Notes: generated by a model not told the origin, from the sequence alone. Shown: positions 8,057 to 61,388, counted from the stretch's first letter. The stretch: DNA of 64,000 nt from an uncultured Candidatus Saccharibacteria bacterium (GCA_964643545.1 CAZXTE010000002.1:18587-82586), one strand, 5' to 3'. Translations and numbers: made by a program.

Positions 8057-8739
8057 AACGTCTTACTCTTACCAAATGGATAGACCCGTATGGCAAGCCG
8101 GCCAACAACATCTTTTAAGTCAATTGGTCCAAAGGAACGTGAGTCAAGAGAATTGGGTCTATTGTCGCCGCACACATAGATTTGATCTTGACCAACCGTA
8201 ATATCAATGTCTTCGCCAGGTGTGGTTACGATCACCTTGCCATATGGGCTGTCATCTGGCCGAAAGCCTTGAGGGTTGGCATCGTTATAGACTTTCAAGA
8301 TGCCGTCCTTAACCGTCACGCGCTCACCGGGAAGCGCCATGACACGCTTGATAAGCTGTCGCTTCTGGTTGCTGCCAAATTCAAAACTATCTTCCCTCGA
8401 GAATATAATAATATCGCCTCTTTTGGGCAGGTAGGCGCGGCCGGTTAGGCGAGCAATAGTTCGTGGCAACTTGTAAACAATGAGTCTGTCACGATTCTGC
8501 AAGGTAGTTTCCATGCTTGGCCCATCCACCTCATATGACTGGAACACGAATGCAGTAAGGGCGAGGGCAATCAGCGGAGCAATAACCAAGATAGCAATAG
8601 TAGATAGAATGCCTTTTATGTTGCTCTTTGATTCATTGTCGGACGGCTCATCTGGGGGGAGTGTTTCGCCTGCATACGGAGCACCGGTTGAGTTGGGCGG
8701 TAGTGTGGGGCTTGGAGGATTTGCCTGCGTGTTGTCCAT
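8053..8739 (-). CDS. lepB: Signal peptidase I
   Basis: The GPSMETTL serine box and GDNRPNSLDSR box are present, with an N-terminal TM helix. Start set at the ATG (complement 8737-8739), which lies 8 nt after a TATAGT -10 box (complement 8748-8753). Confidence 0.85.
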   Translation of the reverse strand: MDNTQANPPSPTLPPNSTGAPYAGETLPPDEPSDNESKSNIKGILSTIAILVIAPLIALALTAFVFQSYEVDGPSMETTLQNRDRLIVYKLPRTIARLTGRAYLPKRGDIIIFSREDSFEFGSNQKRQLIKRVMALPGERVTVKDGILKVYNDANPQGFRPDDSPYGKVIVTTPGEDIDITVGQDQIYVCGDNRPNSLDSRSFGPIDLKDVVGRLAIRVYPFGKSKTF

Positions 8740-8829
8740 AGTCCCCAACTATAGCGTAAATAGTCGAATCATGCACATGTTTAAATTGTCAGGCAATACT
8801 CAGCTTGTTTGCTATACTATACCTACGAA

Positions 8830-9579
8830 ATGAGGCAGTTAACCGACAAAATTAAACCCGCGAGCGGCTTCTCGCACTTTGTGCATATTCTTTTGAATTT
8901 GTTATTACCGGGTCTATTATTTGTTTTTGTTAGAATAGGTTTTTTCCAGCTAGCAGGTCTACTAATCCTGCTTAGTAAGTGGCGTATGTTTGCAGTTAAG
9001 CCGCGGCACTGGCCTGCCAATATACGCGCAAACGGTGTTGATTTGGTTGTCAGCCTGTCATTCCTGGTATTCATGACTCACAGTAGCACCCAAATGATGC
9101 AATTAATCTGGACGACACTCTTCTCCGTGTGGATCTTAGTTATTAAGCCGCGTTCTACGACGCTGGGGATCTCGGTACAGGCGACAATAGGTCAATTTGT
9201 CGGTCTCACAGCACTATATATTGCATGGGGCTCTCGACCCGCCTTTGTACTTGTTGTTGGGGCGTGGGTTGTCGCCTATCTATCAGCGCGTCATTTCTTT
9301 GCTAACTTCGAAGAGAACTTAACTCGATATCTATCATATATCTGGGCTTATGTGGCTGCCGCACTGACCTGGGTATCAAGCCATTGGTTGATCTTTTACG
9401 GTTCAATCTCTCAACCCGCACTGCTTTTGTCCGTAATTGGTTTTGGGCTAGGCAGCGTATATTACTTAGAGAAGACAGATAAGCTTACGACGGCCTTACG
9501 TCGCCAAATTGTATTCGTTATGTTGGCCGTCGTTATCGTGGTGTTAACATTCTCTGACTGGGGTGATAAAACAATTTAA
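8830..9579 (+). CDS. Hypothetical polytopic membrane protein
   Basis: About 250 aa with 6-7 hydrophobic helices. TGcTATACT (8810-8818) lies 11 nt upstream of ATG 8830. No recognisable family. Confidence 0.55.
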   Translation: MRQLTDKIKPASGFSHFVHILLNLLLPGLLFVFVRIGFFQLAGLLILLSKWRMFAVKPRHWPANIRANGVDLVVSLSFLVFMTHSSTQMMQLIWTTLFSVWILVIKPRSTTLGISVQATIGQFVGLTALYIAWGSRPAFVLVVGAWVVAYLSARHFFANFEENLTRYLSYIWAYVAAALTWVSSHWLIFYGSISQPALLLSVIGFGLGSVYYLEKTDKLTTALRRQIVFVMLAVVIVVLTFSDWGDKTI

Positions 9580-9601
9580 AACTAAAAAGGGAGGGTAGTT
9601 G

Positions 9602-10825
9602 GTGCAGCCGGAAGAAAAACTAGTTAAACAAGAGCAGAGTGTAAAAAAAGCGGATGATTCATCGCTCAAACAGGGGGTGCAGGCAGCAAAAAAACGGTTT
9701 GCTGCTTTGGCCTTTCTGCTACTGACGTGTCTTAGTGTTGGCTTCTTCGGTGGTTGGCTTGGGGCGCGCAGTTCACCACAGAATGGTACTACCGCTAAAA
9801 CAACGGCAGCGAGCCAACAGATTATCGCCAATGAAAGTCAGCTCATAAACAAAATCGCCAAAGACGTTGGCCCGAGTGTTGTCTCGGTGAATGTTACTGG
9901 CCAGAGCCAATCAGATATCTTTGGTCTGGGATCTTCACAGCAGAGCGCCGGCACAGGCTTTATTCTAAATACAGAAGGTATCGTCATCACAAATCGTCAC
10001 GTAGTCCCACAAGGCACCAGCGCTATAAGTGTGACACTTTCTGACGGTACAAAACTAGATAAGGTCGAGCTGATCGGTCGCACCAGCAGCAGTGACTCCC
10101 TAGATGTTGCATTTCTAAAGATAACAGACACAAAAGGTAAAAAATTAGTTCCTGCAACATTGGCAGATTCAAGCAAAGTGCAGGTTGGTGATAAAGTTGT
10201 GGCTATTGGCAATGCGCTTGGGCAGTTCCAGAACACCGTAACTTCTGGCATCATCTCCGGGTTTGGTCGCAATGTAGAGGCGGGTGACGGAAGTGGTGCA
10301 AATACAGAATCGCTTCAGAATCTATTCCAAACAGATACGGCAATTAACAGAGGTAATTCAGGTGGACCGTTAGTTAACACAAGTGGTGAGGTCATCGGTA
10401 TCAATACTGCAGTAGCGGGTAATGCAGAGAATATCGGTTTTGCCATACCAATAAATGACGTTCAGGGTCTCATAAAGAGTGTCATCCAAAATGGCAAACT
10501 GCTTCGGCCGTATCTTGGGGTGCGGTATGTTCTGCTCACCGATGACTATGCGTATCAATACAATCTGTCTGTAAAGCGAGGCGCCTATATTCCACCAGCA
10601 CAAGCTGGGCAAGAGGCAATTGTTGGCGGCAGCCCTGCACAAAAAGCCGGCTTAAAAGAGAAAGACATAATTACCAGAATAGATAGCACCGCGATAGATG
10701 AAAACAATAGTCTCACCTCAGTTCTTGGAAGGCATAGTGTCGGTGACAAGATTACTCTATATGTAATTCGAGATGGAAAAGAGAAACAACTAACAACAAC
10801 GCTTGAGGCTGCGCCGGGTTCGTAG
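9602..10825 (+). CDS. htrA: HtrA/DegP-family serine protease with PDZ domain
   Basis: Trypsin-like triad context (TNRHVV, DVAFLK, GNSGGPL) plus a C-terminal PDZ-like region and an N-terminal TM anchor. GGGAGGG SD lies before GTG 9602; TTG 9599 is an alternative start. Confidence 0.85.
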   Translation: MQPEEKLVKQEQSVKKADDSSLKQGVQAAKKRFAALAFLLLTCLSVGFFGGWLGARSSPQNGTTAKTTAASQQIIANESQLINKIAKDVGPSVVSVNVTGQSQSDIFGLGSSQQSAGTGFILNTEGIVITNRHVVPQGTSAISVTLSDGTKLDKVELIGRTSSSDSLDVAFLKITDTKGKKLVPATLADSSKVQVGDKVVAIGNALGQFQNTVTSGIISGFGRNVEAGDGSGANTESLQNLFQTDTAINRGNSGGPLVNTSGEVIGINTAVAGNAENIGFAIPINDVQGLIKSVIQNGKLLRPYLGVRYVLLTDDYAYQYNLSVKRGAYIPPAQAGQEAIVGGSPAQKAGLKEKDIITRIDSTAIDENNSLTSVLGRHSVGDKITLYVIRDGKEKQLTTTLEAAPGS

Positions 10826-11635: not shown

Positions 11636-12680
11636 CGTTGATAAGTTGAGATTCGTACTTCTCGAGCGCTTGGGTTAGGTCGTCGATGTCGCCACTCAGC
11701 GCGCCTTCTATATTGCTGCGAGAAAAACCAATCCGGTGGTCTGTAATACGATCCTGTGGGAAGTTATAGGTGCGAACTTTCTCGCTGCGCTCGCCCGAGC
11801 CAATTAATTTTTTTCGAGATTCACTCAAGGTTTTTTGCTCATCTTCAATTTTAAGAGCAAGCAGCCTTGATCGAAGTACGCCCATAGCCTTATCTTTATT
11901 CTTAATCTGGGACTTTTCATCTTGACAGGTTACCACCAGGCCTGTTGGCAAATGGGTAATTCGTACGGCAGAATCGGTTGTATTGACGCTCTGTCCGCCG
12001 TGACCACTACTGCGATAGACATCGATGCGTAAGTCGTTCGGACCAATCTCTACATCAGTTTCTTCTGCTTCTGGTAGGACGGCCACTGTAACAGTGGACG
12101 TATGAATGCGTCCTTGGCTTTCGGTGCTTGGGATACGCTGTACCCGGTGTACACCAGCTTCAAATTTAAGTTTCTTGTAGGCTTCGTCACCACGGATTGC
12201 AAAAATAATTTCCTTAAAACCACCAACATCACTGGGACTTTCGCTGATCAGTTCTGTTTTATAACCATTTTGTTCACACCAGCGGCTATACATTCGAAAT
12301 AGATCGCCCGCAAACAGGCTTGCTTCGTCGCCGCCAGCAGCAGCACGAATCTCCATAACCACATCGCGGTCGTTATTGGGATCTTTCGGAACAAGCGCTT
12401 CGTGCAAGGCCTCTTTAGCGACAATCTGTGCAGCTTGCAGCTCCTCCAGTTCAGCGCTCGCGAGCTCAGACAGCTCATTCTTAGCATCAACAAGCTCATG
12501 GGCTTCTGCTATATGTTTATCGATACGCTCAACTGCATCGAAGAGCGCCAGGGTTTCTTCGAGTTGCTTGTGTCGCTTCGCAAGCTTTGGATATTCCTTG
12601 GAACTAAAGATAGCAGAGTCTTGTAACCTCTTCTGCAATTCTTCATATTCTTGGCGCAATGATTGCTGCTTATTATCCAT
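11625..12680 (-). CDS. prfA: Peptide chain release factor 1
   Basis: PST tripeptide ([14 protein letters not shown]) and the GGQ motif ([23 protein letters not shown]). Confidence 0.95.
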
Positions 12681-12701
12681 AGTTTGTCCTTAGTATAAAA
12701 G

Positions 12702-17182: not shown

Positions 17183-17211
17183 TTGCAACAGGGGTGATTC
17201 TTTGCTACAGT
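17183..17211 (+). promoter_or_regulatory. rpsB-tsf promoter (extended -10)
   Basis: TTGCAA 17183-17188, 17 nt, TGcTACAGT with -10 at 17206-17211. This leaves a leader of about 93 nt before the rpsB ATG. Confidence 0.5.
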
Positions 17212-17310
17212 ATGGGCACAATTATTAAGCAGGTGATCGCATAAATCCTCCTACGTTGACTCATGCAGGGCAACATAGGCAGGCGACTACCGAAGAGAAA
17301 GGATTACAAT

Positions 17311-18054
17311 ATGGCATCAGTAGATGTTGATATCAAACAATTATTACAGGCTGGTGCTCACTTTGGGCACAAGACAAGCCGTTGGCACCCAAAGATGGCG
17401 CCTTACATTCATAGCAAGCGTGAAGGTACCCATATTATTGATCTGACAAAAACAGTTGAGTGCCTAAACGAAGCGCTCGCATTTGTCGAAAAGACAGTAA
17501 GCGAAGGCAAACAGATCTTGTTTGTTGCTACTAAGAAACAAGCGCAGGATATTGTTAGGCAGGCCGCAGAAGATGTGAACATGCCGTTTGTGACACAGCG
17601 TTGGCTTGGTGGCATGTTGACGAATGAAGCTACCATCGGTGGTCGCATCAAGCACCTTAAGGACCTAGAAGTACGTATGGACAGTGGTGCCTTGGCTGCA
17701 AAGTACAACAAGCTAGAGCTGCAGCGTTACCAGGAAGAAATTGATCAGATGAATGGTCTGTACGGTGGCATCAAGAATATGGATGGCAAGCCAGGGGCAA
17801 TCTTTATTGTTGACGTTGTGAACGAAATGAACGCTGTTCGCGAAGCACTCAAGCTTGGTATCAAAACAGTTGCTATCGTTGATACGAATGCAGATCCAAC
17901 CGACATCGATTACCCGATTCCAGCCAACGATGACGCAATCAAGACCATCCAGCTAATCGTCGATTATATGAAACAAGCTGTTGAAGCTGGTAAAGCAAAG
18001 CACCAAAAGAAAGCTGACAAAACCGAGAAAGTTGCTGACAAGGAGGAGAAATAG
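17311..18054 (+). CDS. rpsB: Ribosomal protein S2
   Basis: MASVDVDIKQLLQAGAHFGHKTSRWHPKM. SD AAAGGA lies upstream of ATG 17311. The 17263 start in the ORF track is probably too long. Confidence 0.95.
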   Translation: MASVDVDIKQLLQAGAHFGHKTSRWHPKMAPYIHSKREGTHIIDLTKTVECLNEALAFVEKTVSEGKQILFVATKKQAQDIVRQAAEDVNMPFVTQRWLGGMLTNEATIGGRIKHLKDLEVRMDSGALAAKYNKLELQRYQEEIDQMNGLYGGIKNMDGKPGAIFIVDVVNEMNAVREALKLGIKTVAIVDTNADPTDIDYPIPANDDAIKTIQLIVDYMKQAVEAGKAKHQKKADKTEKVADKEEK

Positions 18055-18651
18055 ATGGCTATATCACTCGAAGATGTTAAAAGACTCAAAGATCTTACAG
18101 GTGTCGGGCTAACCGATGCAAAAAAGGCTCTCGAAGAAGTGGGCGGCGACTTTGACAAAGCACTGGAGGCAATGCGAAAGAAAGGGCTAACTAAGGCAGA
18201 AAAGCGTGGTGAACGAGAAGCACGTGCCGGTGTTGTTGGTACCTACAACCACGATGGACGCATCGGTGTCTTAGTAGAGGTTAACTGCGAGACAGACTTT
18301 GTTGCACGAAACGAACTATTTACAGATTTAGTTAAAGATTTGGCCATGCACATTGCGGCAAGTTCTCCAGAATTTGTCAGCGTAGAGAGTGTCTCTAACG
18401 AGGCGCGAGCAAAAGCTGAGGCCGAATTTACAGAAAAGGCTAAAGCCGAAGGTAAGCCAGACAACATGCTAGGTCAGATCGTAGATGGTATGCTTAAAAA
18501 GCATTTTGCAGAGCGCTGTTTGCTAGAACAACCTTTTGTTAAGAATCCCGACCAAACAGTAGCAGACTATCTAAAAGAACATATCGCGAAACTTGGAGAG
18601 AACATTGTTATCCGTCGTTTTGAGCGAATGGCATTGGGCGAAGTTAGCTAG
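18055..18651 (+). CDS. tsf: Elongation factor Ts
   Basis: UBA-like N-terminus (VKRLKDLTGVGLTDAKKALEE) and an EF-Ts core. AGGAGG lies in the rpsB tail. Confidence 0.95.
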   Translation: MAISLEDVKRLKDLTGVGLTDAKKALEEVGGDFDKALEAMRKKGLTKAEKRGEREARAGVVGTYNHDGRIGVLVEVNCETDFVARNELFTDLVKDLAMHIAASSPEFVSVESVSNEARAKAEAEFTEKAKAEGKPDNMLGQIVDGMLKKHFAERCLLEQPFVKNPDQTVADYLKEHIAKLGENIVIRRFERMALGEVS

Positions 18652-19945: not shown

Positions 19946-19997
19946 CGATACGCGTTATACATAAAAAGATTCACACAATTACGCTATACTGTACGAG

Positions 19998-21137: not shown

Positions 21138-21973
21138 TGGCAGCTCTTCTGTGGGCTCCGGTATTCTTGCTGGCTGTATACGGTCTTGTTAGTTTTTTCT
21201 ACTGGCCACACAAAAAACAGGCCGAAAAGGGCAAAATAAATTGGACGGGTTGGGATGCGGTTGGGATAGCTGTTTTCTTGTATTTCGCAGGCCAGCTCAT
21301 TGGTGCAATTCTGGCAAACGTGTTGCCGCTATTGTTGGGTTGGGGTAACGAACGAACACTGAAGTGGATCGATACGAATCCCGTTGGTCAGTTTTTGCTC
21401 ATATTCTTTATTGAGTGCATTACCGTTTATCTATTGTATGTGTTCTTAAAACGACGAAAGTCAGGTTTTGGGGCAATTGGACTACGTGGCAAGCCAAAAG
21501 CGAGAGAAATCCTTTATGTGTTAACTGGCTTTGCGGTCTACTTCTTATTGTATGTTGTGCTGGTAACGCTAACCAAGCATTTTATCCCGGCTTTGGACAC
21601 CGAACAGCAACAACAGATAGGCTTTGATAATGCGCAAAATACAGCATTAATCCCTGTGTTTTTGAGCTTGGTAGTGCTGCCCCCGATTGCCGAGGAACTA
21701 CTAGTTCGTGGGTTTTTATATAGTGGGCTGCGAAAAGCGCTACCTAAGATATGGGCAATTGTGCTAACGAGCGGGTTGTTTGCTGTCGCTCACTTACAGG
21801 CGGGGAGCGGCGAGAAGCTTCTTTGGGTGGCGGCAATTGATACATTTGCGCTCTCTGTGGTGTTGATTCACTTACGAGAAAAAACAGGTGCACTGTGGGC
21901 GCCCATGGGGCTCCATGCACTTAAGAACACAATCGCGTTCCTTGCCATTTTCGTCTTTCATGTTGCAAGATAA
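21137..21973 (+). CDS. CPBP family intramembrane glutamic endopeptidase (CAAX protease-like)
   Basis: EELLVRGFLY and FAVAHL motifs in a polytopic protein. ATG 21137 overlaps the rseP stop (TAATG). Confidence 0.8.
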   Translation: MAALLWAPVFLLAVYGLVSFFYWPHKKQAEKGKINWTGWDAVGIAVFLYFAGQLIGAILANVLPLLLGWGNERTLKWIDTNPVGQFLLIFFIECITVYLLYVFLKRRKSGFGAIGLRGKPKAREILYVLTGFAVYFLLYVVLVTLTKHFIPALDTEQQQQIGFDNAQNTALIPVFLSLVVLPPIAEELLVRGFLYSGLRKALPKIWAIVLTSGLFAVAHLQAGSGEKLLWVAAIDTFALSVVLIHLREKTGALWAPMGLHALKNTIAFLAIFVFHVAR

Positions 21974-21990
21974 AGTAAATATGATAAAAT
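21963..21990 (+). promoter_or_regulatory. Promoter driving a leaderless 22-codon ORF upstream of proB
   Basis: TTGCAA 21963-21968, 16 nt, TGaTAAAAT (-10 at 21985-21990), then 6 nt to ATG 21997. Confidence 0.5.
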
Positions 21991-49167: not shown

Positions 49168-49213
49168 GCTTTCAGTATAGCTGTCAAAAGGCTTTTGCGG
49201 TATAGTTTAGAAA

Positions 49214-50245
49214 ATGAGCCAAAAAGCAAAAGCTCGATGGAAGCTAATTCTCAACCTCGTTACCTTCATAGCGTTAATTGCAATGGTCTATATACTTCGT
49301 CATCAAATTCTGGAGAGTTTGAGTAATCTTGGGCGAGTGAACGCATGGGCGCTACTTCTGATGTTCCCGCTTCAATATCTGAATTATCATGCATATACAC
49401 AACAGTACCGTGCAATACTGAGTATTTTTAGTGAACGTATACGCTACCGCTCGATGTTCCGTGTCGTGTTGGAGTTAAATTTTATCAACAATGTATTTCC
49501 GAGTGGGGGTGTTTCCGGCTTCTCTTACTTTAGTTTGCGCATGAAGGACGCAGAGGTGAGTGGGGCAAAGGCATCGTTGACTCATCTTCTGCGATTTATC
49601 CTCGTGTTTATTGCGTTCCAAGTTTTCTTATTAGTGGGTCTGGTTATGTTGGCAATCGGCGGGCAGGCCAACGGACTGGTGTTACTAGTAAGCGGCTCCC
49701 TCGCGACACTCATATTAGTTGGGACTTTGGGGATTGGTGTTGTTATAGGTAGTAAGCGACGTATCCACGCCTTCTTTGGCTTTGTTGCGAAAGTTCTGAA
49801 CAAGATTATTCATGTGGTTCGTCCTAAGCACCCAGAAACGATTAATATGGAGCGCGCAGAAAAAACATTTGAAGAACTACATGAAAATTTCATGGTAATT
49901 CAGAAAGACTATAGCGTACTAAAGCAACCGCTAAAGTGGTCTTTACTTGCCAACCTTACAGAAGTCCTAACAGTTTACACGGTGTATGTGGCATTTGGGC
50001 ATTGGGTTAACCCGGGTGCGGTCATCTTGGCATATGCAGTAGCGAACTTCGCCGGATTCATATCGGTACTACCAGGTGGCGTGGGAATTTACGAGGCGCT
50101 CATGACCGCCGTATTAGCGGCTTGTGGTATTCCACCAGGGTTGAGTATACCCGTGACTGTTATGTATCGAGTCCTCAACTCTACTATCCAGCTGCCACCG
50201 GGTTGGGTATTGTACCACCGGCGTATTCGACAACTGTCACCATGA
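49214..50245 (+). CDS. Polytopic membrane protein, flippase-like / LPG-synthase-TM (UPF0104)-like
   Basis: About 8 TM helices with a basic N-terminus MSQKAKARWKL. The family call rests on general resemblance only. Confidence 0.45.
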   Translation: MSQKAKARWKLILNLVTFIALIAMVYILRHQILESLSNLGRVNAWALLLMFPLQYLNYHAYTQQYRAILSIFSERIRYRSMFRVVLELNFINNVFPSGGVSGFSYFSLRMKDAEVSGAKASLTHLLRFILVFIAFQVFLLVGLVMLAIGGQANGLVLLVSGSLATLILVGTLGIGVVIGSKRRIHAFFGFVAKVLNKIIHVVRPKHPETINMERAEKTFEELHENFMVIQKDYSVLKQPLKWSLLANLTEVLTVYTVYVAFGHWVNPGAVILAYAVANFAGFISVLPGGVGIYEALMTAVLAACGIPPGLSIPVTVMYRVLNSTIQLPPGWVLYHRRIRQLSP

Positions 50246-51357
50246 TTGAACCGGTTTTTTCGGTTAGTGATTTCGTTGCGGTTTTTAACCAAACCCTTGA
50301 GGCGGTTTACCCAAGTGTAACCATTGTTGGTGAACTCTCTAACTTCAAGATTAGTAAGAATAAGTGGGTATACTTTGATCTAAAAGATGAATACTCAAGT
50401 ATCCGCTTCTTTGGTACGATTTACGCACTACCGGGTCCCCTGGAAGACGGTATGATTTTAGAGGTTGTTGGTCAACCGCGTCTTCACGCTTCGTTTGGCT
50501 TCTCGGTGAACGTCCGTACCGTACGTCCAGTCGGTGAGGGCTCAATAAAAAAGGCTGCGCAACTTCTGGAAGCTAAGCTAGAGGCAGAGGGTCTATTTGC
50601 AGTTGAGCGCAAGAGGCCAATACCGTACCCGCCAAAGCGAATTGCTCTTGTGACTTCATTGCAGTCAGCCGCATACGCTGACTTCCTTAAAGTTTTAGGA
50701 AAGCGATGGTCTGGCCTGCAGATTGATCTGTATGACGTACAGGTGCAGGGCGAGGCTGCTGCAGGCCAAATTGTAGAAGCAATGCAGTATTTCAACAGTG
50801 CTCCGAATCTTCCCGATGTCATTGTGGTAACAAGGGGCGGGGGTAGCGCGGATGACCTGGCTGTGTTTAATACAGAGCAAGTGACACGTGCGGTTGCGGC
50901 CAGCCGCGCCCCCACTTTGGTTGCCATTGGCCATGAGACTGATGTCAGTTTGGCTGAGCGAGCGGCTGACCAACGAGCAAGTACGCCAAGTAATGCTGCT
51001 GAGTTGTTGGTGCCGGATAGACTAAGTGAAAAGCAGAGGCTTTCTTTAACCGAAGCTAGTCTATCGCAGCAGGTCACTGGAGTAATTATGCAAAAAAGAG
51101 AAGAACTCCAGCATAAACAACGGGCCCTACTCGTGGCATTGCAGGGGATATGGCAACAATCTTCAGCGCACCTGTCAGCAAGTAAAGATATCTTGCAGGC
51201 ATTGAATCCCCATGCCGTTCTCGCGAGAGGATACTCGATAACCAGAGATAAGACAGGCAGAATTATTCGAACCACCAAAGGTCTTACGAAAGGCCAAGCA
51301 CTCAGTATTCAGCTGCACGAGGGTGGTTTTGGTGTGCGAGTAGATGAGATACAATAG
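50242..51357 (+). CDS. xseA: Exodeoxyribonuclease VII large subunit
   Basis: N-terminal OB fold (VSDFVAVFNQTLE...VTIVGELSNF), then VVTRGGGSADDL and IGHETD. ATGA overlap with the upstream gene. Confidence 0.85.
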   Translation: MIEPVFSVSDFVAVFNQTLEAVYPSVTIVGELSNFKISKNKWVYFDLKDEYSSIRFFGTIYALPGPLEDGMILEVVGQPRLHASFGFSVNVRTVRPVGEGSIKKAAQLLEAKLEAEGLFAVERKRPIPYPPKRIALVTSLQSAAYADFLKVLGKRWSGLQIDLYDVQVQGEAAAGQIVEAMQYFNSAPNLPDVIVVTRGGGSADDLAVFNTEQVTRAVAASRAPTLVAIGHETDVSLAERAADQRASTPSNAAELLVPDRLSEKQRLSLTEASLSQQVTGVIMQKREELQHKQRALLVALQGIWQQSSAHLSASKDILQALNPHAVLARGYSITRDKTGRIIRTTKGLTKGQALSIQLHEGGFGVRVDEIQ

Positions 51358-51363
51358 AAAGTA

Positions 51364-51552
51364 ATGGCAGATAACTACCAAACATTAAATCAAGAGCTGG
51401 CGGAGATAATTGACACGCTGCAATCCGCTGACATTGATATAGATGAGGCTTTGCGTCTTCACAAGCGTGGCCAGGATATTGTGCATAAGCTTGAGGCATA
51501 CTTAAAAAAGACAGAGAATATTGTTAAAACACACAAGACGACCTCTTCCTAG
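51364..51552 (+). CDS. xseB: Exodeoxyribonuclease VII small subunit
   Basis: 62 aa, with LAEIIDTLQSADIDIDEALRLHKRGQDIVHKLEAYL. It directly follows xseA. Confidence 0.8.
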   Translation: MADNYQTLNQELAEIIDTLQSADIDIDEALRLHKRGQDIVHKLEAYLKKTENIVKTHKTTSS

Positions 51553-51596
51553 ATGAAATTTTGTTAGACCCCTAGGACTGTGCTAACATAACCGTT

Positions 51597-52259
51597 ATGA
51601 AAAGACTTGATCAGCAGGGCAGTTCAACAGGTTGGCTGATTGCATTTATGATCTCAACATTCTTGTTCGTTGGGGTGGCAATATTTAGTTTTTGGGCATT
51701 TAGTGAGCGCAATGACTACAAAAATAACACCGACGCAAAGGTGGTGGCTGCAGTAGAAGAGGCGCAACAACAAACATCTGCCGCAAAGACCAAAGAGTTT
51801 GAAGAAAAAGAAAAAAACCCGTACCGCACATATGTTGGCCCTGGTGCTTATGGCAGCATCTCAATCTCATACCCAAAGACATGGAGCGCATATGTTGACG
51901 AAACCAGCACGGGCGCAAGCATTATAGATGGCTACTATAACCCCGCAACCGTACCCGCTATACAAAGCAAAGCAAACTTTGCTCTTCGAGTTCAAGTAAT
52001 CACACAGTCTTATACCCAAATAGTAACAACACTCTCCCAGCAGTTAAAAAATGGTAAATTCAAAATGGTTCCTTACCGAGCAGATAAAGTCCCCTCGGTT
52101 ACTGGCGTTCGGGTTGATGGGGAAGTTTCACCCGGGAAACAAGGCAGCCTGATTATCTTGCCAGTTAGAGATAAGACGTTAAAAATTTGGTCTGAAGCTC
52201 CAGAATTTGTTAAAGACCTAGACGCCATAGTCTTGCCAAATCTGACATTTGTGCCGTAA
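51597..52259 (+). CDS. Hypothetical membrane-anchored protein
   Basis: One N-terminal TM helix and an extracytoplasmic domain of about 170 aa. Promoter: TTGTTA, 17 nt, TGcTAACAT, 7 nt before the ATG. Confidence 0.5.
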   Translation: MKRLDQQGSSTGWLIAFMISTFLFVGVAIFSFWAFSERNDYKNNTDAKVVAAVEEAQQQTSAAKTKEFEEKEKNPYRTYVGPGAYGSISISYPKTWSAYVDETSTGASIIDGYYNPATVPAIQSKANFALRVQVITQSYTQIVTTLSQQLKNGKFKMVPYRADKVPSVTGVRVDGEVSPGKQGSLIILPVRDKTLKIWSEAPEFVKDLDAIVLPNLTFVP

Positions 52260-52305
52260 GCATTTTCGAGTGGTATACTACGCTTAGAAGTGAGGGTAGT
52301 GCTGT

Positions 52306-53037
52306 ATGCGGACGAAGAAAAATGAGTACAAAAAGTATTCTAAAGACGAGGAACGTCAGTTGCTTGCGTCGCTTGCCGAACAGCTAAGAGTCCCTATTGT
52401 TCAAATGGCTCGGCTCTCCGAAGAGGATAGTAAAAAAAATCGTAAAACTATTGCGACAATATCAAGGACAGCAAACGAGCTCATAGATGCCTATCAACTT
52501 GTGCTGCAGTTGCATATGCAGGAGGGGGCACTGCACGTTGAACCAGTCTCGCTCTCTGCGCTTCTGCATAAGACAGCGCAGAAAACGCAAAGACTTGCAG
52601 AAGAGTATCGCTGTGATGTGCAGATAGACACAAGAGGGAGCTATGAGCCGGTTCTAATAAACACAGAGATCATAGAGGCTGCGTTGAGTGCTCTTAGTTC
52701 TGTCTTTATCATTGAGTCAAAAGCGTCTGGCACAGACACCGCTAGATCGAGCCGACCCATTGTTACGCTTGCGGCCCATCGTAGTCGCTGGGGATTGGTT
52801 GTGGGTGCGTATAGTAGTAATACATCAATGAACAACGCAACGTATGGGCGAGCTAAGAATCTGTATGGCAAGGCGCGACAGCCACTCAATCATATCTTTA
52901 CGTCTGCAGGGGCTGGCGTTTTTATCGCCAACGCGCTGCTTGCAATGGCTGCATGTAACCTCCATGCATCGAGATACCACAACATGACTGGCCTCGCCGT
53001 CACCTTAAAACCCGCCAGTCAACTGAGCTTAGTGTAA
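52306..53037 (+). CDS. Histidine-kinase-like protein with degenerate catalytic motifs (putative pseudokinase)
   Basis: The DHp-like segment LASLAEQLRVPI aligns to the xSHELRTPL box with Glu (52378-52380) at the His position. The X-box/linker resembles HK cores. The N and G1 boxes are not recognisable, and the G2-like box is SAGAGVFIA. Confidence 0.55.
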   Translation: MRTKKNEYKKYSKDEERQLLASLAEQLRVPIVQMARLSEEDSKKNRKTIATISRTANELIDAYQLVLQLHMQEGALHVEPVSLSALLHKTAQKTQRLAEEYRCDVQIDTRGSYEPVLINTEIIEAALSALSSVFIIESKASGTDTARSSRPIVTLAAHRSRWGLVVGAYSSNTSMNNATYGRAKNLYGKARQPLNHIFTSAGAGVFIANALLAMAACNLHASRYHNMTGLAVTLKPASQLSLV

Positions 53038-53426: not shown

Positions 53427-54142
53427 GGCAGCAGATCGCCAAGGCAATCGTTTTATCGCGTACGAACTACGGCGAAAGTGATCGGATTCTATCATTGCTC
53501 ACAAGCGACAAAGGCAAGATTCGTTTAGTAGCAAAAGGAGTGAGAAAATCAAAAAGCAAAAATGCTGGGGGCATAGAACTACTTAGCATAAATACAATTA
53601 GCTACTTGCAAGGCTCGAGAGATCTGGGGACACTGATCTCAGCGCGGTCAGAGGAACAGTACGACAATATTGTTAAGGATATTGAACGCACTATGTTTGC
53701 GTACGACCTACTTAAAAAAGTCCACATAGTTACAGAAGATGCAGTTGAAGAAGCATATTTTAGTATGATGGAGCAAGCATTAAGGGGCCTAGATGATCTT
53801 GATCTACCCTTGGCGGCCGTTAAGCTATGGGCATATCTTCAGCTGCTGTTATTGATGGGGCATACACCCAATCTCTCACAAGACACAAACGGGAAGAGAC
53901 TGCAAAGTGAGCAAACCATGTACCTATTCAATTTTGACCATATGGCATTTTCTGTGGATCAGAACGGGACGTTTAATGCTGCTGCGATCAAGTTGTTGCG
54001 GCTCGTAACGCAGCAGAGGAGCCCGCTCCGTCTTCGACAAATACGGGATGTTAACGAATACTGGGAGCCTCTTGCAACATTTGCGAGTAGCTTGCTTATG
54101 GCGCAACTACCACAAAAAAGAAGTAAAACATCGTATACTTAG
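53423..54142 (+). CDS. recO: DNA repair protein RecO
   Basis: AIVLSRTNYGESDRILSLLTSDKGKIRLVAKGVRKSKSK is a typical RecO OB N-terminus. ATGA overlap with the upstream gene. Confidence 0.8.
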   Translation: MRQQIAKAIVLSRTNYGESDRILSLLTSDKGKIRLVAKGVRKSKSKNAGGIELLSINTISYLQGSRDLGTLISARSEEQYDNIVKDIERTMFAYDLLKKVHIVTEDAVEEAYFSMMEQALRGLDDLDLPLAAVKLWAYLQLLLLMGHTPNLSQDTNGKRLQSEQTMYLFNFDHMAFSVDQNGTFNAAAIKLLRLVTQQRSPLRLRQIRDVNEYWEPLATFASSLLMAQLPQKRSKTSYT

Positions 54143-54146
54143 CACA

Positions 54147-54290
54147 ATGAAACAAACACCAGAGTTAGCTTCTCAAAAAGAGCACGAAAGCGAGCCGCTC
54201 AGCAAGCGGCTTGTGCGTATTGCTGGTGGTATTGCATTGTTGGGCGTTGGCTTTAACCTCATTCGTAATATATTCTCGTCTAAGCAATAA
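54147..54290 (+). CDS. Small hypothetical membrane protein (47 aa)
   Basis: TATACT (54134-54139) lies 7 nt before the ATG. C-terminal TM helix LVRIAGGIALLGVGFNLI. Confidence 0.35.
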   Translation: MKQTPELASQKEHESEPLSKRLVRIAGGIALLGVGFNLIRNIFSSKQ

Positions 54291-54326
54291 AGACCGGCAC
54301 TGCCGTTTCTGTTATAATCCCCACTA

Positions 54327-55655
54327 ATGAGTGACGTAAAACTAGAAGATATTGTTAGTTTATGTAAGCGCCGAGGCTTCGTTTTTCAGGCAAGTGATAT
54401 TTACGGGGGGCTGGCCGGCTTTTGGGACTATGGACCACTGGGTGTGGAGTTGATTAATAACATCAAAGCTGAATGGTGGAAAGCGGTTGTCACAGAAAGT
54501 GATAATATCTTTGGCCTTGATGGTGCAATTATTCAAAATCCAAAGCTGTGGGAAGCTAGCGGGCATGTAGCTGGTTTTACCGATCCTTTGGTAGATTGTA
54601 AAAACTGCGGTGCTCGTCATAGGGCAGACCATCTTGCAGGTACGGACTCGACCGATCTAAAAGAGCTCACAGATTTGCTTAAGGGTAAGGCGTGTCCAAC
54701 ATGCGGCAAGCAGACTCTGACTGAACCGCGCAAGTACAACATGATGATGAAGACCTGGGTTGGCCCAGTAGAGGATGAATCGAGTGTTGCATATCTGAGG
54801 CCAGAGACGGCCGGTTCAATTTTTGTAAATTATGAAAACGTCCGCGAGACAATGCGTGCAAAATTACCATTTGGTATTGCCCAAATCGGAAAGGCATTTC
54901 GAAACGAAATCAGCCCACGTGACTTTATCTTTCGTGTCCGCGAACTTGAGCAGATGGAAATGCAGTATTTTATTAATCCCAACGACGAGGAACAGGCATA
55001 TGAGGCGTGGAGATCATTTGCCTGGAAGTTCCTAACTGACCGTCTTGGTGTCGACGAGAAAAATCTGCAATGGCATGAACACGATGCAAATGAGCGCGCA
55101 CACTATGCAGCCGCGGCACATGACATATACTTTAAGTTCCCACAAGGATTTAAAGAACTCTGGGGCACTCATAATAGGACTGACTTTGACCTATCAAGCC
55201 ACATGAAAGCCAGCGGGAAAGACCTTCAATATTTTGACGATGAGACAAGGGAGCGTTTCACGCCTTTTATAGTTGAGAGTTCGGTGGGTGTTGGCCGAAT
55301 GATGATGGCAGTACTTACAAACGCATATCGAGAAGAAGAAATTAAGGGTGAAAAGCGGATTGTCCTAAAACTCGATCCTCGCATCGCACCTGTTAAGATG
55401 GCTGTCTCGCCGTTGCTCAAGAATAAGCCCGAACTTGTTGCCAAGGCTCGAGAAGTCTATACAGACATGAAAAAGAAATATGGCGCTGTTATGTGGGACG
55501 ACAATGGCAACATTGGTAAACGATACCGAAGACAAGATGAGATTGGCACACCAAAATGCGTCACGATTGACTTTCAGACACTAGACGATAATACAGTTAC
55601 CGTGCGCGACCGCGACACAACTGAACAGACGCGAATAGATATCCTGGAATTGTAG
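54327..55655 (+). CDS. glyQS: Glycyl-tRNA synthetase (homodimeric alpha2 type)
   Basis: CKRRGFVFQASDIYGGLAGFWDYGPLG, YLRPETAGSIF, GKAFRNEISPR. Confidence 0.95.
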   Translation: MSDVKLEDIVSLCKRRGFVFQASDIYGGLAGFWDYGPLGVELINNIKAEWWKAVVTESDNIFGLDGAIIQNPKLWEASGHVAGFTDPLVDCKNCGARHRADHLAGTDSTDLKELTDLLKGKACPTCGKQTLTEPRKYNMMMKTWVGPVEDESSVAYLRPETAGSIFVNYENVRETMRAKLPFGIAQIGKAFRNEISPRDFIFRVRELEQMEMQYFINPNDEEQAYEAWRSFAWKFLTDRLGVDEKNLQWHEHDANERAHYAAAAHDIYFKFPQGFKELWGTHNRTDFDLSSHMKASGKDLQYFDDETRERFTPFIVESSVGVGRMMMAVLTNAYREEEIKGEKRIVLKLDPRIAPVKMAVSPLLKNKPELVAKAREVYTDMKKKYGAVMWDDNGNIGKRYRRQDEIGTPKCVTIDFQTLDDNTVTVRDRDTTEQTRIDILEL

Positions 55656-55718
55656 TAGCAAAAAAAAGGAATTGCTTATGCTTGTGTTTCATGAGCGCTG
55701 GGTTCAAAATGTAGCGCA

Positions 55719-56438
55719 ATGAGTAACGTAGACGTAGCTACTCCCCAAGAAGAATTCCGCATTGGCGTATTGGCGTCTGGCGGTGGAACGACTTTCGAAG
55801 CTTTGCAACAATCCATTCTTGATGGTCAGCTCGTTGGTGTAAGTATAGAGTTTGTTATTTGTAATAATGGGCCAGCCAACCCAGATGCTGGGGTGTGGGC
55901 GCGAGCAGGGCGTTTGGGTATACCTGCATACCACGTATCAAATAAGACCCAGCGGGAGTGCACGATTCCTCCTGAAATCGATGGCACTATAAGTTATGAA
56001 GCAAGCGAAAGAATTGTACAGTTAGCCGATAATTACGGGGCGCATATGCTAGTTACGCTTGGTTATATGAAAAGACTTATTGGGGATGCCTTAGAGATAG
56101 ACGTTGCAAACACACACCCAGGACCGCTCGGCCCTGATCGATTGACAGCGGGTTTCCATGGCGACGGTGTCCAAGAAGAAGTGATGCGCAAAAAACTGCC
56201 ATATTCTGGGCCCACGTTTCATTGGCTTAGCAAAGAGTTGGGTCCTGATGATGTGCCTGCATACGACATGGGGCCAGAGATTGGGCACACACCAGTCGCA
56301 GTCACAGATGAGATGAGGGCAGAGTGGGAAGAATTTGGTACCGTAAAACAACTAAAAGCAGAAGTTATGAGGGTCGAAAAGTTGTGGGTCCCAACCTGGG
56401 TGGGTATGGCACGAGATCAAGTCCTGGCTAGCGCATAA
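55719..56438 (+). CDS. Formyltransferase, PurN (GAR transformylase)-like
   Basis: RIGVLASGGGTTFEAL N-terminus, NTHPGPL (Asn/His as in the NIHPSLLP box), and TFHWL. The rest is divergent. Confidence 0.55.
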   Translation: MSNVDVATPQEEFRIGVLASGGGTTFEALQQSILDGQLVGVSIEFVICNNGPANPDAGVWARAGRLGIPAYHVSNKTQRECTIPPEIDGTISYEASERIVQLADNYGAHMLVTLGYMKRLIGDALEIDVANTHPGPLGPDRLTAGFHGDGVQEEVMRKKLPYSGPTFHWLSKELGPDDVPAYDMGPEIGHTPVAVTDEMRAEWEEFGTVKQLKAEVMRVEKLWVPTWVGMARDQVLASA

Positions 56439-56471
56439 GCCACACACAAAAAACTGCTAGAATAGGTATAT

Positions 56472-56891
56472 ATGATACAAAAGCAAGATGTCCTTGCGTT
56501 TTTACGCAAACACTCGTTGGCTGTTTTAGCAACGGCAGACATGAAGGGTAAGCCGCAAGCGGCGGTGGTTGAATTTGCAGAACTGGACGACCTGACGATT
56601 ATTATTGATACATTTAATTATTCTCGAAAGTATAAGAATCTTCAACAGAATGACCAAGTTGCAATTGTTGTTGGCTGGGACAACAACGTCACGCTTCAAA
56701 TGGATGCGACTGCACATGAGTTGAAGGGGGAAGACCTATTACGCGCCAAAGAAATATATTTTGCAAAAAATGAGCGCGCAAAAAAATGGGCCAACAAACC
56801 AGAGATTGCCTACTTTGCTTTCAAGCCAACCTGGATGCGCTACTCGGACGTAGGAAAAACCCCATGGCAGATAGAAGAAGTGCATCTATGA
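56472..56891 (+). CDS. Pyridoxamine 5'-phosphate oxidase-like FMN-binding split-barrel protein
   Basis: 139 aa with the pattern LRKHSLAVLATADMKGKPQAAVVEF ... typical of the PNPOx-like family. Confidence 0.65.
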   Translation: MIQKQDVLAFLRKHSLAVLATADMKGKPQAAVVEFAELDDLTIIIDTFNYSRKYKNLQQNDQVAIVVGWDNNVTLQMDATAHELKGEDLLRAKEIYFAKNERAKKWANKPEIAYFAFKPTWMRYSDVGKTPWQIEEVHL

Positions 56892-58442: not shown

Positions 58443-58547
58443 CGGTATATAGTGCCACAACAGTAGTTAACAACCAAAAGCGCAAACGAAGTGCTATCAT
58501 TAGTGCAGATTGGTAATCCTGCATGCAGAGAATGGAGAGAACAGTAG

Positions 58548-59099
58548 ATGAGGCGGTTTAAAAATAAGAAGCCCTTGGGCAACTATGCTTTTATAGATAA
58601 TCAAAACTTAAACTTGGGTGTGCGAAAACTTGGCTGGAAAATGGATTGGCGTAAGTTTCGTAAACTGCTGGAAGAGAAGTATGGTGTCACTAAAGCATTT
58701 ATGTTTATTGGGCATATGCCTGAACATGAGGATATGTATATTAAGTTGCACGAAACGGGTTACTTGATCGTTCTAAAACCAACATCTGACTTAACGCGTC
58801 CCCAGATAGAGCAGAAAGTTGAGCAACCAGAGGCTGAAAAGAAGCCAATCAAAGGGAATGTTGATGTGGAGTTAGTGCTTTGGGCAGTGAAGGAGATAGA
58901 TAACTACGATAAAGCAGTTATTATTTCTGGAGATGGTGACTTTTATAGTTTGGTTGAATACTTAGACGAAAAGGGTAAACTTCTGAAGCTTCTCGCACCC
59001 AACGGACATTACTCACGACTCTACAACAAGTATGACAAGTATGTTGACCGTATAGATAAAATGCGTGGTCAGCTTGCATATTTGTTTGATAAAAAATAG
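58548..59099 (+). CDS. NYN/LabA-like (PIN-related) domain protein
   Basis: YAFIDNQNLNLG ... VIISGDGDFYSLVEYL is the typical NYN acidic signature. Confidence 0.7.
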   Translation: MRRFKNKKPLGNYAFIDNQNLNLGVRKLGWKMDWRKFRKLLEEKYGVTKAFMFIGHMPEHEDMYIKLHETGYLIVLKPTSDLTRPQIEQKVEQPEAEKKPIKGNVDVELVLWAVKEIDNYDKAVIISGDGDFYSLVEYLDEKGKLLKLLAPNGHYSRLYNKYDKYVDRIDKMRGQLAYLFDKK

Positions 59100-59109: not shown

Positions 59110-59691
59110 ATGGTAACGAAACATACTCTTGAACGAAGACAATTCGGCGACCCAATTTTGCGCAAGAAAGCGCGAAGGGTCACCAAGGCCGAAATTACCT
59201 CCGAAAAAATACAAACATTAATTACTGACATGCAACATACGCTCAAATCTCTGAAGCTGGGAGTGGGCTTAGCTGCGCCCCAGGTTGGGGTATCACTACA
59301 ACTTGCAGTTATCTGCATTCAGCCGACGGCTCATCGTCCAGATGTTACGCCATTTGAAGAGGTGCTTATTAACCCGGTTATCACTGAAAAGAGCAAAGGG
59401 ACGGCGCTCTTGTGGGAAGGTTGTATCAGCAGTGGAGACGGCGATGTTGGCCTATTTGCGAAAGTGTCGCGACATAAAGAAATAAACGTGACCTATCAAG
59501 CTGCAGATGGCACCACACGCAAACGAGCATTTTCGGGGTTACAGGCACAAGTCATTCAGCACGAAGTTGATCATTTGCACGGAGCTTTGTTCGTTGACCG
59601 GGTCGAGGACACGTCGTCATATATGACCTATGCAGAATATATAAAGCGGATTCGTTCTAAGACAACAACAGCCACGCGAGATAGCGTATAA
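59110..59691 (+). CDS. def: Peptide deformylase
   Basis: GVGLAAPQVG, EGCIS and QHEVDHLHG motifs. Confidence 0.9.
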   Translation: MVTKHTLERRQFGDPILRKKARRVTKAEITSEKIQTLITDMQHTLKSLKLGVGLAAPQVGVSLQLAVICIQPTAHRPDVTPFEEVLINPVITEKSKGTALLWEGCISSGDGDVGLFAKVSRHKEINVTYQAADGTTRKRAFSGLQAQVIQHEVDHLHGALFVDRVEDTSSYMTYAEYIKRIRSKTTTATRDSV

Positions 59692-59700
59692 TATCTTCTA

Positions 59701-60975
59701 ATGAGCAAAAGCATTTTCCCAAAGGACTTTTTTTGGGGGGTAAGCACGGCCAGTCACCAAGTAGAGGGTGGTACAGAGAACCAGTGGAGTACGTGGGAAT
59801 TGGCGCATGCAAAGGAGCTTGCCAAGAGTGCCGAGCAGCGACTGGGCATGTTGCCAATTTGGGATGAGATAAAAGCAGAGGCTCAAGATCCACAGAATTA
59901 TGTTTCTGGAAAAGGTGTCGAACACTACAAACGATACAAAGAGGACTTCGCTATTGTGGAAAAGCTTGGCCTTAACGCCTTCCGTTTTGGAATCGAGTGG
60001 TCACGTGTTCAGCCCGAAGAAGGTACATGGGACGACAAGGCATTGGAACATTATCGTGATTACATTGCAGAACTTCAAGCTCGCGATATTGAGCCCTTTG
60101 TCAATCTATGGCACTGGACTATGCCAACGTGGTTTACAGACAAGGGTGGATTTAAGTACAGAAAAAACCTCTCGTGTTGGCGCAAATTTGTTCAGAAGAT
60201 ATCCGACGAATTTGGAAGCGATATTCGCTACGTAATTACCATAAACGAACCAAATGTCTATGCTAGTTTTAGTTACGCTACTGGCGAGTGGCCACCACAG
60301 GAAAAAAACTGGTTGAATGCATCACGGGTTATATGGAATCTGGTGTTGGCTCACAAAATTGCATACAAAACGCTCAAGAAAGATCATCCGCATTTGTCGA
60401 TTGGCATTGCTGCCCAACTTGCAAATATTCAGGCAAAGCGACCGCACAATTTTATAGATGAGCTTATGACGAAATGGATGCGCATGTTCTGGAACTGGTG
60501 GTTTATGAATCGCATTCGCAAACAACAAGATTTTGTAGGTTTCAATTATTACTTCAGTGATTACTATAAATATTTTCACAGAGATAATCCTGGGCAACCA
60601 CAGAACGACCTGGGCTGGTATATGGAACCCGAAGGACTGTACCCACTATTATTGCGCGCCTGGTCACACTACAAGAAACCAATCTTTATTACCGAGAATG
60701 GTGTCGCTGATAGGACCGATCAATACCGACAATGGTGGCTAGAGGAAACAATTATTGCCATGGAGCGTGCATTGAGCGAAGGAATTGATGTACGCGGATA
60801 CTTCCACTGGAGCCTGCTCGATAATTTCGAATGGAAATACGGTTGGTGGCCTAAGTTTGGACTGGTAGAGGTAGATAGAGAACACGATATGAAACGCACG
60901 ATCCGCCCCAGTGGCCGTTGGCTTGCTAGGAAAATACAAGCCATGAAACATGGCTCGCCACCAACAAAAGAGTGA
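59701..60975 (+). CDS. Glycoside hydrolase family 1 beta-glucosidase
   Basis: FPKDFFWGVSTASHQVEG, TINEPN (acid/base Glu), ITENG (nucleophile Glu). Confidence 0.9.
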   Translation: MSKSIFPKDFFWGVSTASHQVEGGTENQWSTWELAHAKELAKSAEQRLGMLPIWDEIKAEAQDPQNYVSGKGVEHYKRYKEDFAIVEKLGLNAFRFGIEWSRVQPEEGTWDDKALEHYRDYIAELQARDIEPFVNLWHWTMPTWFTDKGGFKYRKNLSCWRKFVQKISDEFGSDIRYVITINEPNVYASFSYATGEWPPQEKNWLNASRVIWNLVLAHKIAYKTLKKDHPHLSIGIAAQLANIQAKRPHNFIDELMTKWMRMFWNWWFMNRIRKQQDFVGFNYYFSDYYKYFHRDNPGQPQNDLGWYMEPEGLYPLLLRAWSHYKKPIFITENGVADRTDQYRQWWLEETIIAMERALSEGIDVRGYFHWSLLDNFEWKYGWWPKFGLVEVDREHDMKRTIRPSGRWLARKIQAMKHGSPPTKE

Positions 60976-60986
60976 AACAAACAAAC

Positions 60987-61015
60987 TTGACAATAACGCT
61001 AATGTTTGCTATAGT
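60987..61015 (+). promoter_or_regulatory. Consensus-like promoter of leaderless ORF 61023
   Basis: TTGACA 60987-60992, 17 nt, TGcTATAGT (-10 at 61010-61015), then 7 nt to the ATG. Confidence 0.6.
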
Positions 61016-61022
61016 GTGAAGC

Positions 61023-61388
61023 ATGTCAGATCAACACACTTTTCTAGGGCTACCAGAGCCAACACACAGACCAGTCGACCGAGTAATTGCTGATGCAGAA
61101 GCAAAGCGCGTTGCATCACGTGAAGCAGCAGGGCGTACGCGTGCAAAAATAGGTAAAGCAGCAATCGCATTATTTGCGGTGACAAATCCAGTCGTCCCAC
61201 GTGTAGCTGTCGGTACGGCGCATACAGTAGTTGAAGCTGTACAAGACTTTAATCAGAGACTAGACAACGACCGTATGTTCCATACAGGTGAAGAGGGCAG
61301 CCAGCCAGATGCACAGCAGCAAGGTGTAGATCAGCAGGCTCAAACACACAATGTTCAACCAGCGGCACAAGAACAGCACGGCAACTAA
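61023..61388 (+). CDS. Hypothetical protein (121 aa), Gln-rich C-terminus
   Basis: A strong promoter upstream and a strong terminator downstream. No motif recognised. Confidence 0.5.
   Translation: MSDQHTFLGLPEPTHRPVDRVIADAEAKRVASREAAGRTRAKIGKAAIALFAVTNPVVPRVAVGTAHTVVEAVQDFNQRLDNDRMFHTGEEGSQPDAQQQGVDQQAQTHNVQPAAQEQHGN

Follow-up and report, generated by a model that had tools for sequence, protein, structure and literature searches.

Candidate −10 boxes lying against start codons suggest leaderless or near-leaderless initiation beside Shine-Dalgarno initiation in Candidatus Saccharibacteria

In the 64,000-nt stretch of DNA analysed here (GCA_964643545.1 CAZXTE010000002.1:18587-82586; hereafter the window, numbered from its first letter), about a third of the genes, ~27 of roughly 70, have a −10 promoter box of the TATAAT type lying against the ATG. 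The window is chromosomal DNA of Candidatus Saccharibacteria (Saccharimonadales, Candidate Phyla Radiation (CPR)/Patescibacteria), a CPR lineage with reduced ribosomes and a genome of roughly 1 Mb. Its GC content is 45-48%. Proteins homologous to its glycyl-tRNA synthetase (GlyRS; 442 aa, 54327-55655) at 80-98% identity number in the hundreds, the named ones belonging to Candidatus Saccharibacteria, Saccharimonadales or Patescibacteria. An earlier reading of this DNA from the sequence alone (the sequence-only reading) had listed 21 start codons with such a box 6-8 nt upstream and proposed that the corresponding mRNAs begin at the ATG itself, with Shine-Dalgarno (SD) sites on internal genes only. 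Here we describe these sites and their neighbours, compare them with related genomes, and weigh what they may say about translation initiation in this lineage.

Results

Throughout, the gap is the number of nucleotides that separate the hexamer's last T from the A of the ATG; a strong hexamer is one that matches TATAAT at ≥5/6 positions, and TANNNT is the looser pattern. The hexamer and ATG coordinates of all 21 listed pairs proved exact, with gaps of 6 nt (n = 5), 7 nt (n = 7) and 8 nt (n = 9). TANNNT fits 20/21 hexamers, and many read gcTATAnT. All sites below lie on the plus strand unless a minus strand is given. With a gap of 6 nt we found the genes for heliorhodopsin (29721..29735, tggTATATT, ATG 29733), serS (32051..32065, cggTATAAT, ATG 32063), prfB (37746..37760, tgcTATACT, ATG 37758) and a methyltransferase (49165..49179, minus strand, agcTATACT, ATG 49167), along with a 22-codon open reading frame (ORF) at ATG 21997 that is taken up below. 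A gap of 7 nt was seen at rseP (19985..20000, cgcTATACT, ATG 19998, which is the 5′-most start), class I lysS (24752..24767, ggaTAGAAT, ATG 24765), a response regulator gene (44661..44699, TTGCCA-17-TAGCAT, ATG 44697), an LPG-synthase-TM family gene (49201..49216, cggTATAGT, ATG 49214), a hypothetical 220-aa gene (51584..51599, tgcTAACAT, ATG 51597), a 47-codon ORF whose box lies within the recO 3′ end (54134..54149, TATACT, ATG 54147) and a hypothetical 121-aa gene (60987..61025, TTGACA-17-tgcTATAGT, ATG 61023). The gap was 8 nt at lepB, encoding signal peptidase I (8737..8753, minus strand, cgcTATAGT, ATG 8739), an ABC transporter ATPase gene (26329..26345, tgcTATACT, ATG 26343), a Cas4-like nuclease gene (31235..31251, agcTACAAT, ATG 31249), ftsE (38875..38891, tgcTATAAT, ATG 38889), a hypothetical 167-aa gene (45132..45148, gtaTATAAT, ATG 45146), glyS (54313..54329, tgtTATAAT, ATG 54327), a hypothetical 239-aa gene (55682..55721, TTGTGT-17-CAAAAT, ATG 55719), a PNPOx-family gene (56458..56474, tgcTAGAAT, ATG 56472) and a GH1 glycosidase gene (59687..59703, gcgTATAAT, ATG 59701).

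Long ORFs are opened by 19 of the 21 ATGs, and in 16 of these 19 no other start codon lies between the preceding in-frame stop and the ATG; for the other three (8739, 29733 and 44697), the upstream alternatives are only a TTG or an ATG in overlap with the neighbouring gene. Four of the starts are supported by NCBIfam profile alignments that begin at residue 1-2, namely those of lysS (residue 2), the ABC ATPase gene, serS and ftsE.

Position-specific enrichment was evident within the window. Strong hexamers at gap 6-8 preceded 15/67 ORF starts as opposed to 15/1931 other ATGs, and for TANNNT at the same gaps the counts were 17/67 and 87/1931 (Fisher p = 1.6e-8). When the upstream 60 nt were dinucleotide-shuffled 1000 times, 1.1 +/- 1.0 sites were obtained, with a maximum of 5, in place of the 15 observed at 68 starts. 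Read in the other direction, 11 of the 24 motifs in the window, both strands counted, that combine TGn with a strong hexamer have, 6-11 nt downstream, an ATG that opens an ORF of ≥60 aa.

Relatives were drawn from a scan of GTDB species representatives, which gave ~60 Saccharibacteria loci and ~15 Chloroflexota loci; 58 Saccharibacteria species loci (1.02 Mb, 1135 ORFs) made up the lineage set, and 100 kb of Escherichia coli K-12 and 196 kb of Chloroflexota went through the same pipeline as controls. Strong hexamers in the lineage set numbered 54, 57, 42 and 42 at gaps 6-9 and 25 and 16 at gaps 10-11, over a background of 7.7 per position, and dropped to only 0-1 at gaps 4-5, which leaves a sharp floor at gap 6. 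The distance class of 6-8 nt therefore describes all 21 listed sites but is too narrow for the lineage, where the peak spans gaps 6-9 and has a tail to 11. In all, ~21% of lineage ORFs carry a box, and the share by bin of GlyRS identity was 24%, 15% and 18%, compared with 4-6% at a control offset. No peak appeared in E. coli (0-1/97) or in Chloroflexota (0/157), of which E. coli (GC 51%) is the better control and the high-GC Chloroflexota loci are a weak one for box absence. Among unambiguous (divergent) first genes the arrangement was found in 34-44%, and in 0% of those of E. coli. The enrichment of −10 hexamers at a set distance from start codons that the sequence-only reading predicted was borne out in the window against shuffled controls and in the related loci, and the core of that reading agreed with every computational test made here.

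The arrangement was also conserved at individual genes. A strong box stands at gap 6-11 (mode 8-9) before glyS in 43/62 orthologous loci, with flanks that cannot be aligned, and Chloroflexota glyS orthologues have AGGAG and GTG in place of the box. Four further loci (L035, L036, L039 and L060) share gtgCAATAAT 9 nt before the glyS ATG, an extended −10 with A for T at the first position; because the TANNNT filter missed sites of this type, the reported site counts are lower bounds. In one clade (L042, L044, L046, L050 and L053), the glyS box, ggTATAATcc, precedes the ATG by 24-29 nt, and the predicted leader of ~17-22 nt has no obvious SD. The box was kept in 26/34 orthologues of the methyltransferase gene, 22/32 of the LPG-synthase-TM gene and 12/13 of the GH1 gene, while it was found in 2/44 for recO and 3/30 for the 220-aa hypothetical gene, and a strong box in 0/10 for the response regulator gene. 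The methyltransferase and LPG-synthase-TM genes form a divergent pair whose spacer ranges from 22 to 182 nt across species, each box remaining 6-10 nt from its own ATG. In the window this spacer measures 46 nt, and the two −10 boxes sit back to back, 21 nt apart. Loci L005, L008, L011, L018, L026 and L032 share the pair, and in some species a spacer of 22-41 nt leaves the boxes nearly touching.

The 199 lineage sites were aligned on the hexamer, with TGn forming no part of the selection. The informative positions outside the hexamer were a G two positions upstream (67%) and a T before that G (46%), with TG together in 36%; in the window, the G was present in 13/16 sites and TG in 7/16. No column in the −35 zone exceeded 0.08 bit, and matches of ≥5/6 to TTGACA were found at a 17-nt spacer in 12/199 sites (6%), with counts of 0-3 for the other spacers from 10 to 30 nt and of 3-5 for those of 8-9 nt. 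The general element is TGnTATAAT, and −35 boxes are the exception. The sequence-only reading had pointed to −35 boxes at 60987, 44661 and 55682, and these count among the matches at a 17-nt spacer and do all lie at that distance, but such boxes are rare across the lineage. A generic two-hexamer sigma-70 scan of the window gave no excess (17 vs 18.9 in shuffles); such a scan passes over almost every one of these sites, since they have no −35 box. The start codon was ATG in 181/199 (91%) of the box class, compared with 647/953 (68%) of other lineage ORFs, and in 16/16 of the class in the window. TGnTATAAT also precedes tRNA-Trp genes of the related loci, at distances of 17 and 31 nt, in two independent cases; this control is anecdotal, since the 58 loci gave only five tRNAs, and neither Rfam at the gathering threshold nor ARAGORN found RNA genes in the window.

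At least eight further box/ATG sites lie in the window beyond the 21, two with gaps of 7-8 nt and six with gaps of 10-12 nt. One belongs to xseB (62 aa, ORF 51364-51552, Pfam PF02609, 36 bits; site 51350..51366, TACAAT, gap 8, ATG 51364), which adjoins the 3′ end of xseA (50242-51357) and in whose place the longest-ORF caller had picked a spurious opposite-strand ORF of 65 aa. The other short-gap site precedes a 94-aa gene (1405..1420, tggTAAAAT, gap 7, ATG 1418), for which a start at 1418 is more plausible than one at 1346, which overlaps the upstream gene. The longer gaps are found at rplU, encoding L21 (5963..5981, tgtTAAGAT, gap 10, ATG 5979), a gene at 8830 divergent from lepB (8813..8832, tgcTATACT, gap 11, ATG 8830), prfA (12678..12697, minus strand, TATACT, gap 11, ATG 12680), rpmE, encoding L31 (13092..13112, minus strand, ctgTATAAT, gap 12, ATG 13094), a sortase gene divergent from that of heliorhodopsin (29669..29688, minus strand, tgcTATAAT, gap 11, ATG 29671) and a CHAP-domain hydrolase gene (40552..40570, tgtTAAAAT, gap 10, ATG 40568).

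Box-class genes are preceded by spacers of 26-47 nt, and some boxes share bases with the gene upstream. The TAA within TATAAT is the upstream stop codon at serS (32053-32055) and at the GH1 gene (59689-59691), and the last T of the box is the first base of a TAG stop at the 31235 box (31240-31242) and, with the xseA stop, at the 51350 box.

The site at 21963..22105 differs from the rest. Here the promoter TTGCAA-16-tgaTAAAAT (box 21985-21990) precedes ATG 21997, which opens the 22-codon ORF. The promoter at 21963-21990 is likely real, and a gene start at ATG 21997 is not supported. A terminator-like bidirectional hairpin, CGGCC-TCCG-GGCCG with a T-run (22092-22105), follows the ORF upstream of proB (22145), and the 21963-22145 region may be an attenuator or a leader, or may specify a small RNA. 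It had no Rfam match, and the fold of 21997-22150 was not significant (z = −1.5).

Genes outside the box class showed a separate signal. Among the 1006 lineage ORFs not assigned to the leaderless class, tetramers of the SD core peaked 4-10 nt before the start (314 observed vs 48 expected), in a peak of the same shape as that of E. coli. The five SD examples given in the sequence-only reading are all present: the internal genes tsf (18041..18057, AGGAGG 18041-18046, 8 nt before ATG 18055) and parB (7168..7186, AAGGAGG 7168-7174, GTG 7184), together with htrA (9589..9604, GGGAGGG 9589-9595, GTG 9602), proS (22936..22952, AAGGAG 22936-22941, 8 nt before ATG 22950, profile from residue 1) and ileS (3032..3046, GGAGG 3032-3036, 7 nt before ATG 3044). 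Its claim that SD sites are confined to internal genes fell, however, on six leadered first genes that have both a −10 box of their own, 26-100 nt upstream, and an SD inside a leader of 19-100 nt. These are greA (24202..24272, ctgaTATAAT with box 24206-24211, leader ~50 nt, AAGGAG 24255-24260, ATG 24270), rpsB (17183..17313, TTGCAA-17-tgcTACAGT with box 17206-17211, leader ~95 nt, AAAGGA 17298-17303, ATG 17311), parA (6336..6438, TATAAT 6336-6341, leader ~90 nt, GAGG 12 nt before ATG 6436), gene 47398 (47335..47400, TTGACA-17-tgcTATGAT with box 47358-47363, AAGGA 47387-47391), gene 52306 (52271..52308, tggTATACT with box 52274-52279, leader ~19 nt, GAGGG 52292-52296) and the NYN-domain gene 58548 (58492..58550, tgcTATCAT with box 58495-58500, GGAGAG 58534-58539). 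Conversely, 17-25% of tightly packed co-directional lineage genes have a box at the ATG, so that what counts as a first gene is set by the promoter and not by spacing.

Several other features of the window were recorded. The heliorhodopsin gene occupies 29733-30554 (NF038020, 307 bits), and the lysyl-tRNA synthetase encoded at 24765-26300 is of class I (archaeal type). A programmed +1 frameshift in prfB, present in many bacteria, relies on an internal SD-like sequence; prfB here (37758-38849) is a single uninterrupted 363-aa ORF without it. A 1334-aa ORF (13168-17172) contains internal DNA repeats, with the same 45-nt stretch before 13378 and 13639, and neither a box nor an SD was recognisable at its start.

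Discussion

The motif, its position relative to the ATG, its enrichment, its promoter side features and its conservation were observed directly, and from them we infer where transcription starts and how the mRNAs are translated. Most of the listed sites are probably true promoters giving mRNAs that are leaderless or have leaders of ≤5 nt. In these genes a sigma-70-type −10 box with the consensus (T)GnTATAAT, in most cases with no −35 box, lies 6-12 nt upstream of the ATG. RNA polymerase would start 7-8 nt after the box, which for gaps 6-7 is the A of the start codon and for gaps 8-12 a point 1-5 nt before it. Such an mRNA has no room for an SD, which points to a leaderless route of translation, in which ribosome and initiator tRNA would bind the 5′-terminal AUG. 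The remaining genes, operon-internal ones and the minority of first genes with 20-100-nt leaders, would use SD/anti-SD pairing. With promoters packed into the short spacers or into the last codons or stop of the upstream gene, most genes in co-directional arrays would have a transcription start of their own.

How closely transcription start and start codon coincide bears on the alternative that these are real promoters whose transcripts mostly start a few nucleotides upstream of the ATG, with 1-5-nt leaders that are not strictly leaderless. Gap 8 accounts for 9/21 sites and gaps 9-12 for at least six further ones, and bacterial transcription starts in general centre on a point 7 bp downstream of the −10 box (PMC12641261). 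Lineage sites show an A-rich position that shifts as the gap widens, lying at −1 for gap 8 (A 58%), at −2/−3 for gap 9 and at −3/−4 for gaps 10-11; this suggests that the transcription start is fixed 7-8 nt after the box, so that the gap-8 sites may carry 1-2-nt leaders. On the other hand, gaps 6-7 are the commonest in the lineage and account for 12/21 sites, and there a pyrimidine directly precedes the ATG in 79% (gap 6) and 66% (gap 7) of lineage sites. The proposal that mRNAs start exactly at the A of the ATG accordingly fits gaps 6-7 and may be off by 1-2 nt at gap 8. We consider short leaders at most sites possible, if on balance doubtful; a 1-5-nt leader without an SD belongs functionally to the same class, and would refine rather than replace the explanation by promoters set against start codons.

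It is very unlikely that the hexamer is instead a non-SD, A/T-rich ribosome-binding or enhancer signal on leadered mRNAs, of the type that GeneMarkS-2 places in its group B. The hexamer does lie at the distance of a ribosome-binding site (RBS), a coincidence also noted for Mycobacterium tuberculosis (PMC6028130), and the anti-SD motif is absent in some CPR lineages (PMC9297842). But a TGn extension, like −35 boxes with a spacer of exactly 17 nt, belongs to recognition by RNA polymerase, the same motif precedes tRNA genes, and neither the sharp floor at gap 6 nor the A-rich position that moves with the gap suits an RBS. The motif is moreover strongest at divergent first genes, and in the window packed co-directional genes more often have an SD only. 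Nor did we find the Bacteroidota-type pattern of group B, a non-SD motif before first and internal genes alike: genes outside the leaderless class in the same genomes use canonical SD cores. Least probable of all is that base composition or upstream stop codons (TAA/TAG in A/T-rich spacers) mimic TANNNT near the next ATG, for although five boxes overlap an upstream stop (31240, 32053, 51355 and 59689) or coding end (54134), this artefact was rejected by the dinucleotide shuffles (1.1 vs 15 observed) and by the divergent-gene subset, where enrichment is highest and no same-strand upstream stop exists, and the full hexamer and TGn are conserved while the flanks diverge.

Several points nevertheless weigh against reading the sites as leaderless promoters. 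Three of the boxes are weak, namely CAAAAT (55705), the sole exception to TANNNT and the weakest site, and TAGCAT (44684) and TAACAT (51584), which match at 4/6 positions. Two listed ATGs open only short, unconserved ORFs of 22 codons (21997) and 47 codons (54147), the latter annotated as a gene in a public contig; tblastn with the 22-aa and 47-aa peptides gave no credible match in the related loci. The sequence-only reading had offered the layout as a rule for calling small ORFs, and the outcome is mixed, as it recovers xseB while these two small ORFs are unconserved. The gene calls were simple longest-ORF calls, the start of each non-overlapping window ORF being taken as its 5′-most ATG. That SDs are scarce among leaderless genes is in part a trivial result, since an SD would have to sit where the box does. 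Co-directional genes without intervening terminators could be reached by read-through from upstream promoters. Finally, in the one Saccharibacteria start-site set that our search turned up, that of Nanosynbacter lyticus TM7x, where start sites were inferred from RNA-seq coverage, box-to-start distances were variable or noisy according to the authors (PMC12641261).

The two-mode initiation regime proposed in the sequence-only reading is upheld by the boxes and the separate SD peak, but it is not new in kind, corresponding to group C of GeneMarkS-2, in which a Pribnow box lies 6-8 nt from first-gene starts, an RBS is used elsewhere, and an estimated 25-50% of operons are leaderless (Lomsadze et al. 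2018, PMC6028130). That group takes in 90% of Actinobacteria and 97% of Deinococcus-Thermus (PMC6028130). The window and its relatives resemble it in having the box 6-8 nt before first genes and, ahead of the other genes, an SD-type RBS equally far from the start, here with 34-44% of divergent first genes in the arrangement; they differ from it in a GC content of 47%, which is not high, and in a mostly extended −10 without a −35 box that in many cases is merged with the upstream gene's end. As judged from sequence, the mechanism is the known leaderless one of group C architecture, and it is the lineage that is new for it. Neither Saccharibacteria nor CPR is named in the main text of the group C paper (PMC6028130). 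As cited there (Cortes 2013; Shell 2015; de Groot 2014), many mRNAs of M. tuberculosis, M. smegmatis and Deinococcus deserti start at the start codon, with a −10 box directly upstream and no SD, and the same account gives 167/262 mapped genes of D. deserti as leaderless (PMC6028130). The mycobacterial and D. deserti cases, as described in that account, rest on differential RNA sequencing with proteogenomics, whereas ours rests on sequence statistics and conservation. Our literature search found no report joining leaderless mRNAs with Saccharibacteria, CPR, Patescibacteria or TM7, only reference-list or unrelated mentions, and a preprint on the transcriptome of TM7x is silent on start sites, promoters and untranslated regions.

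Extended −10 (TGnTATAAT) promoters work without a −35 box in E. coli and Gram-positive bacteria. The sites described here are like these in that G or TG is enriched with one base between it and the hexamer, and in the lack of a general −35 signal; unlike them, they appear to be the default promoter type and to be coupled to leaderless starts. Mycoplasma pneumoniae, of an unrelated lineage, likewise has a small genome and −10-only promoters, with the Pribnow box as the main element and leaders that are short or absent. Whether leaderless or near-leaderless initiation from a −35-less extended −10 would be the default for first genes throughout the class Saccharimonadia is, in our estimation, evenly balanced.

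For annotation, (TGn)TATAAT 6-11 nt before an ATG is a usable start signal in Saccharibacteria metagenome-assembled genomes; in the window it brings xseB to light and fixes the starts of the heliorhodopsin gene (29733) and of the gene at 1418. Genetic manipulation of Saccharibacteria has become feasible only recently, and in expression cassettes for them an extended −10 abutting the ATG would probably be enough, while a borrowed SD-led design may not mirror native expression. The boxes that share bases with stop codons and the back-to-back divergent boxes would show how promoters are squeezed in a genome of roughly 1 Mb. Our understanding of the leaderless mechanism itself would be unchanged. 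If the interpretation is true, however, a deep-branching, genome-reduced phylum would join the few bacterial groups with extensive leaderless translation, and this would inform the question of whether such initiation is an ancestral trait or one tied to ribosome reduction.

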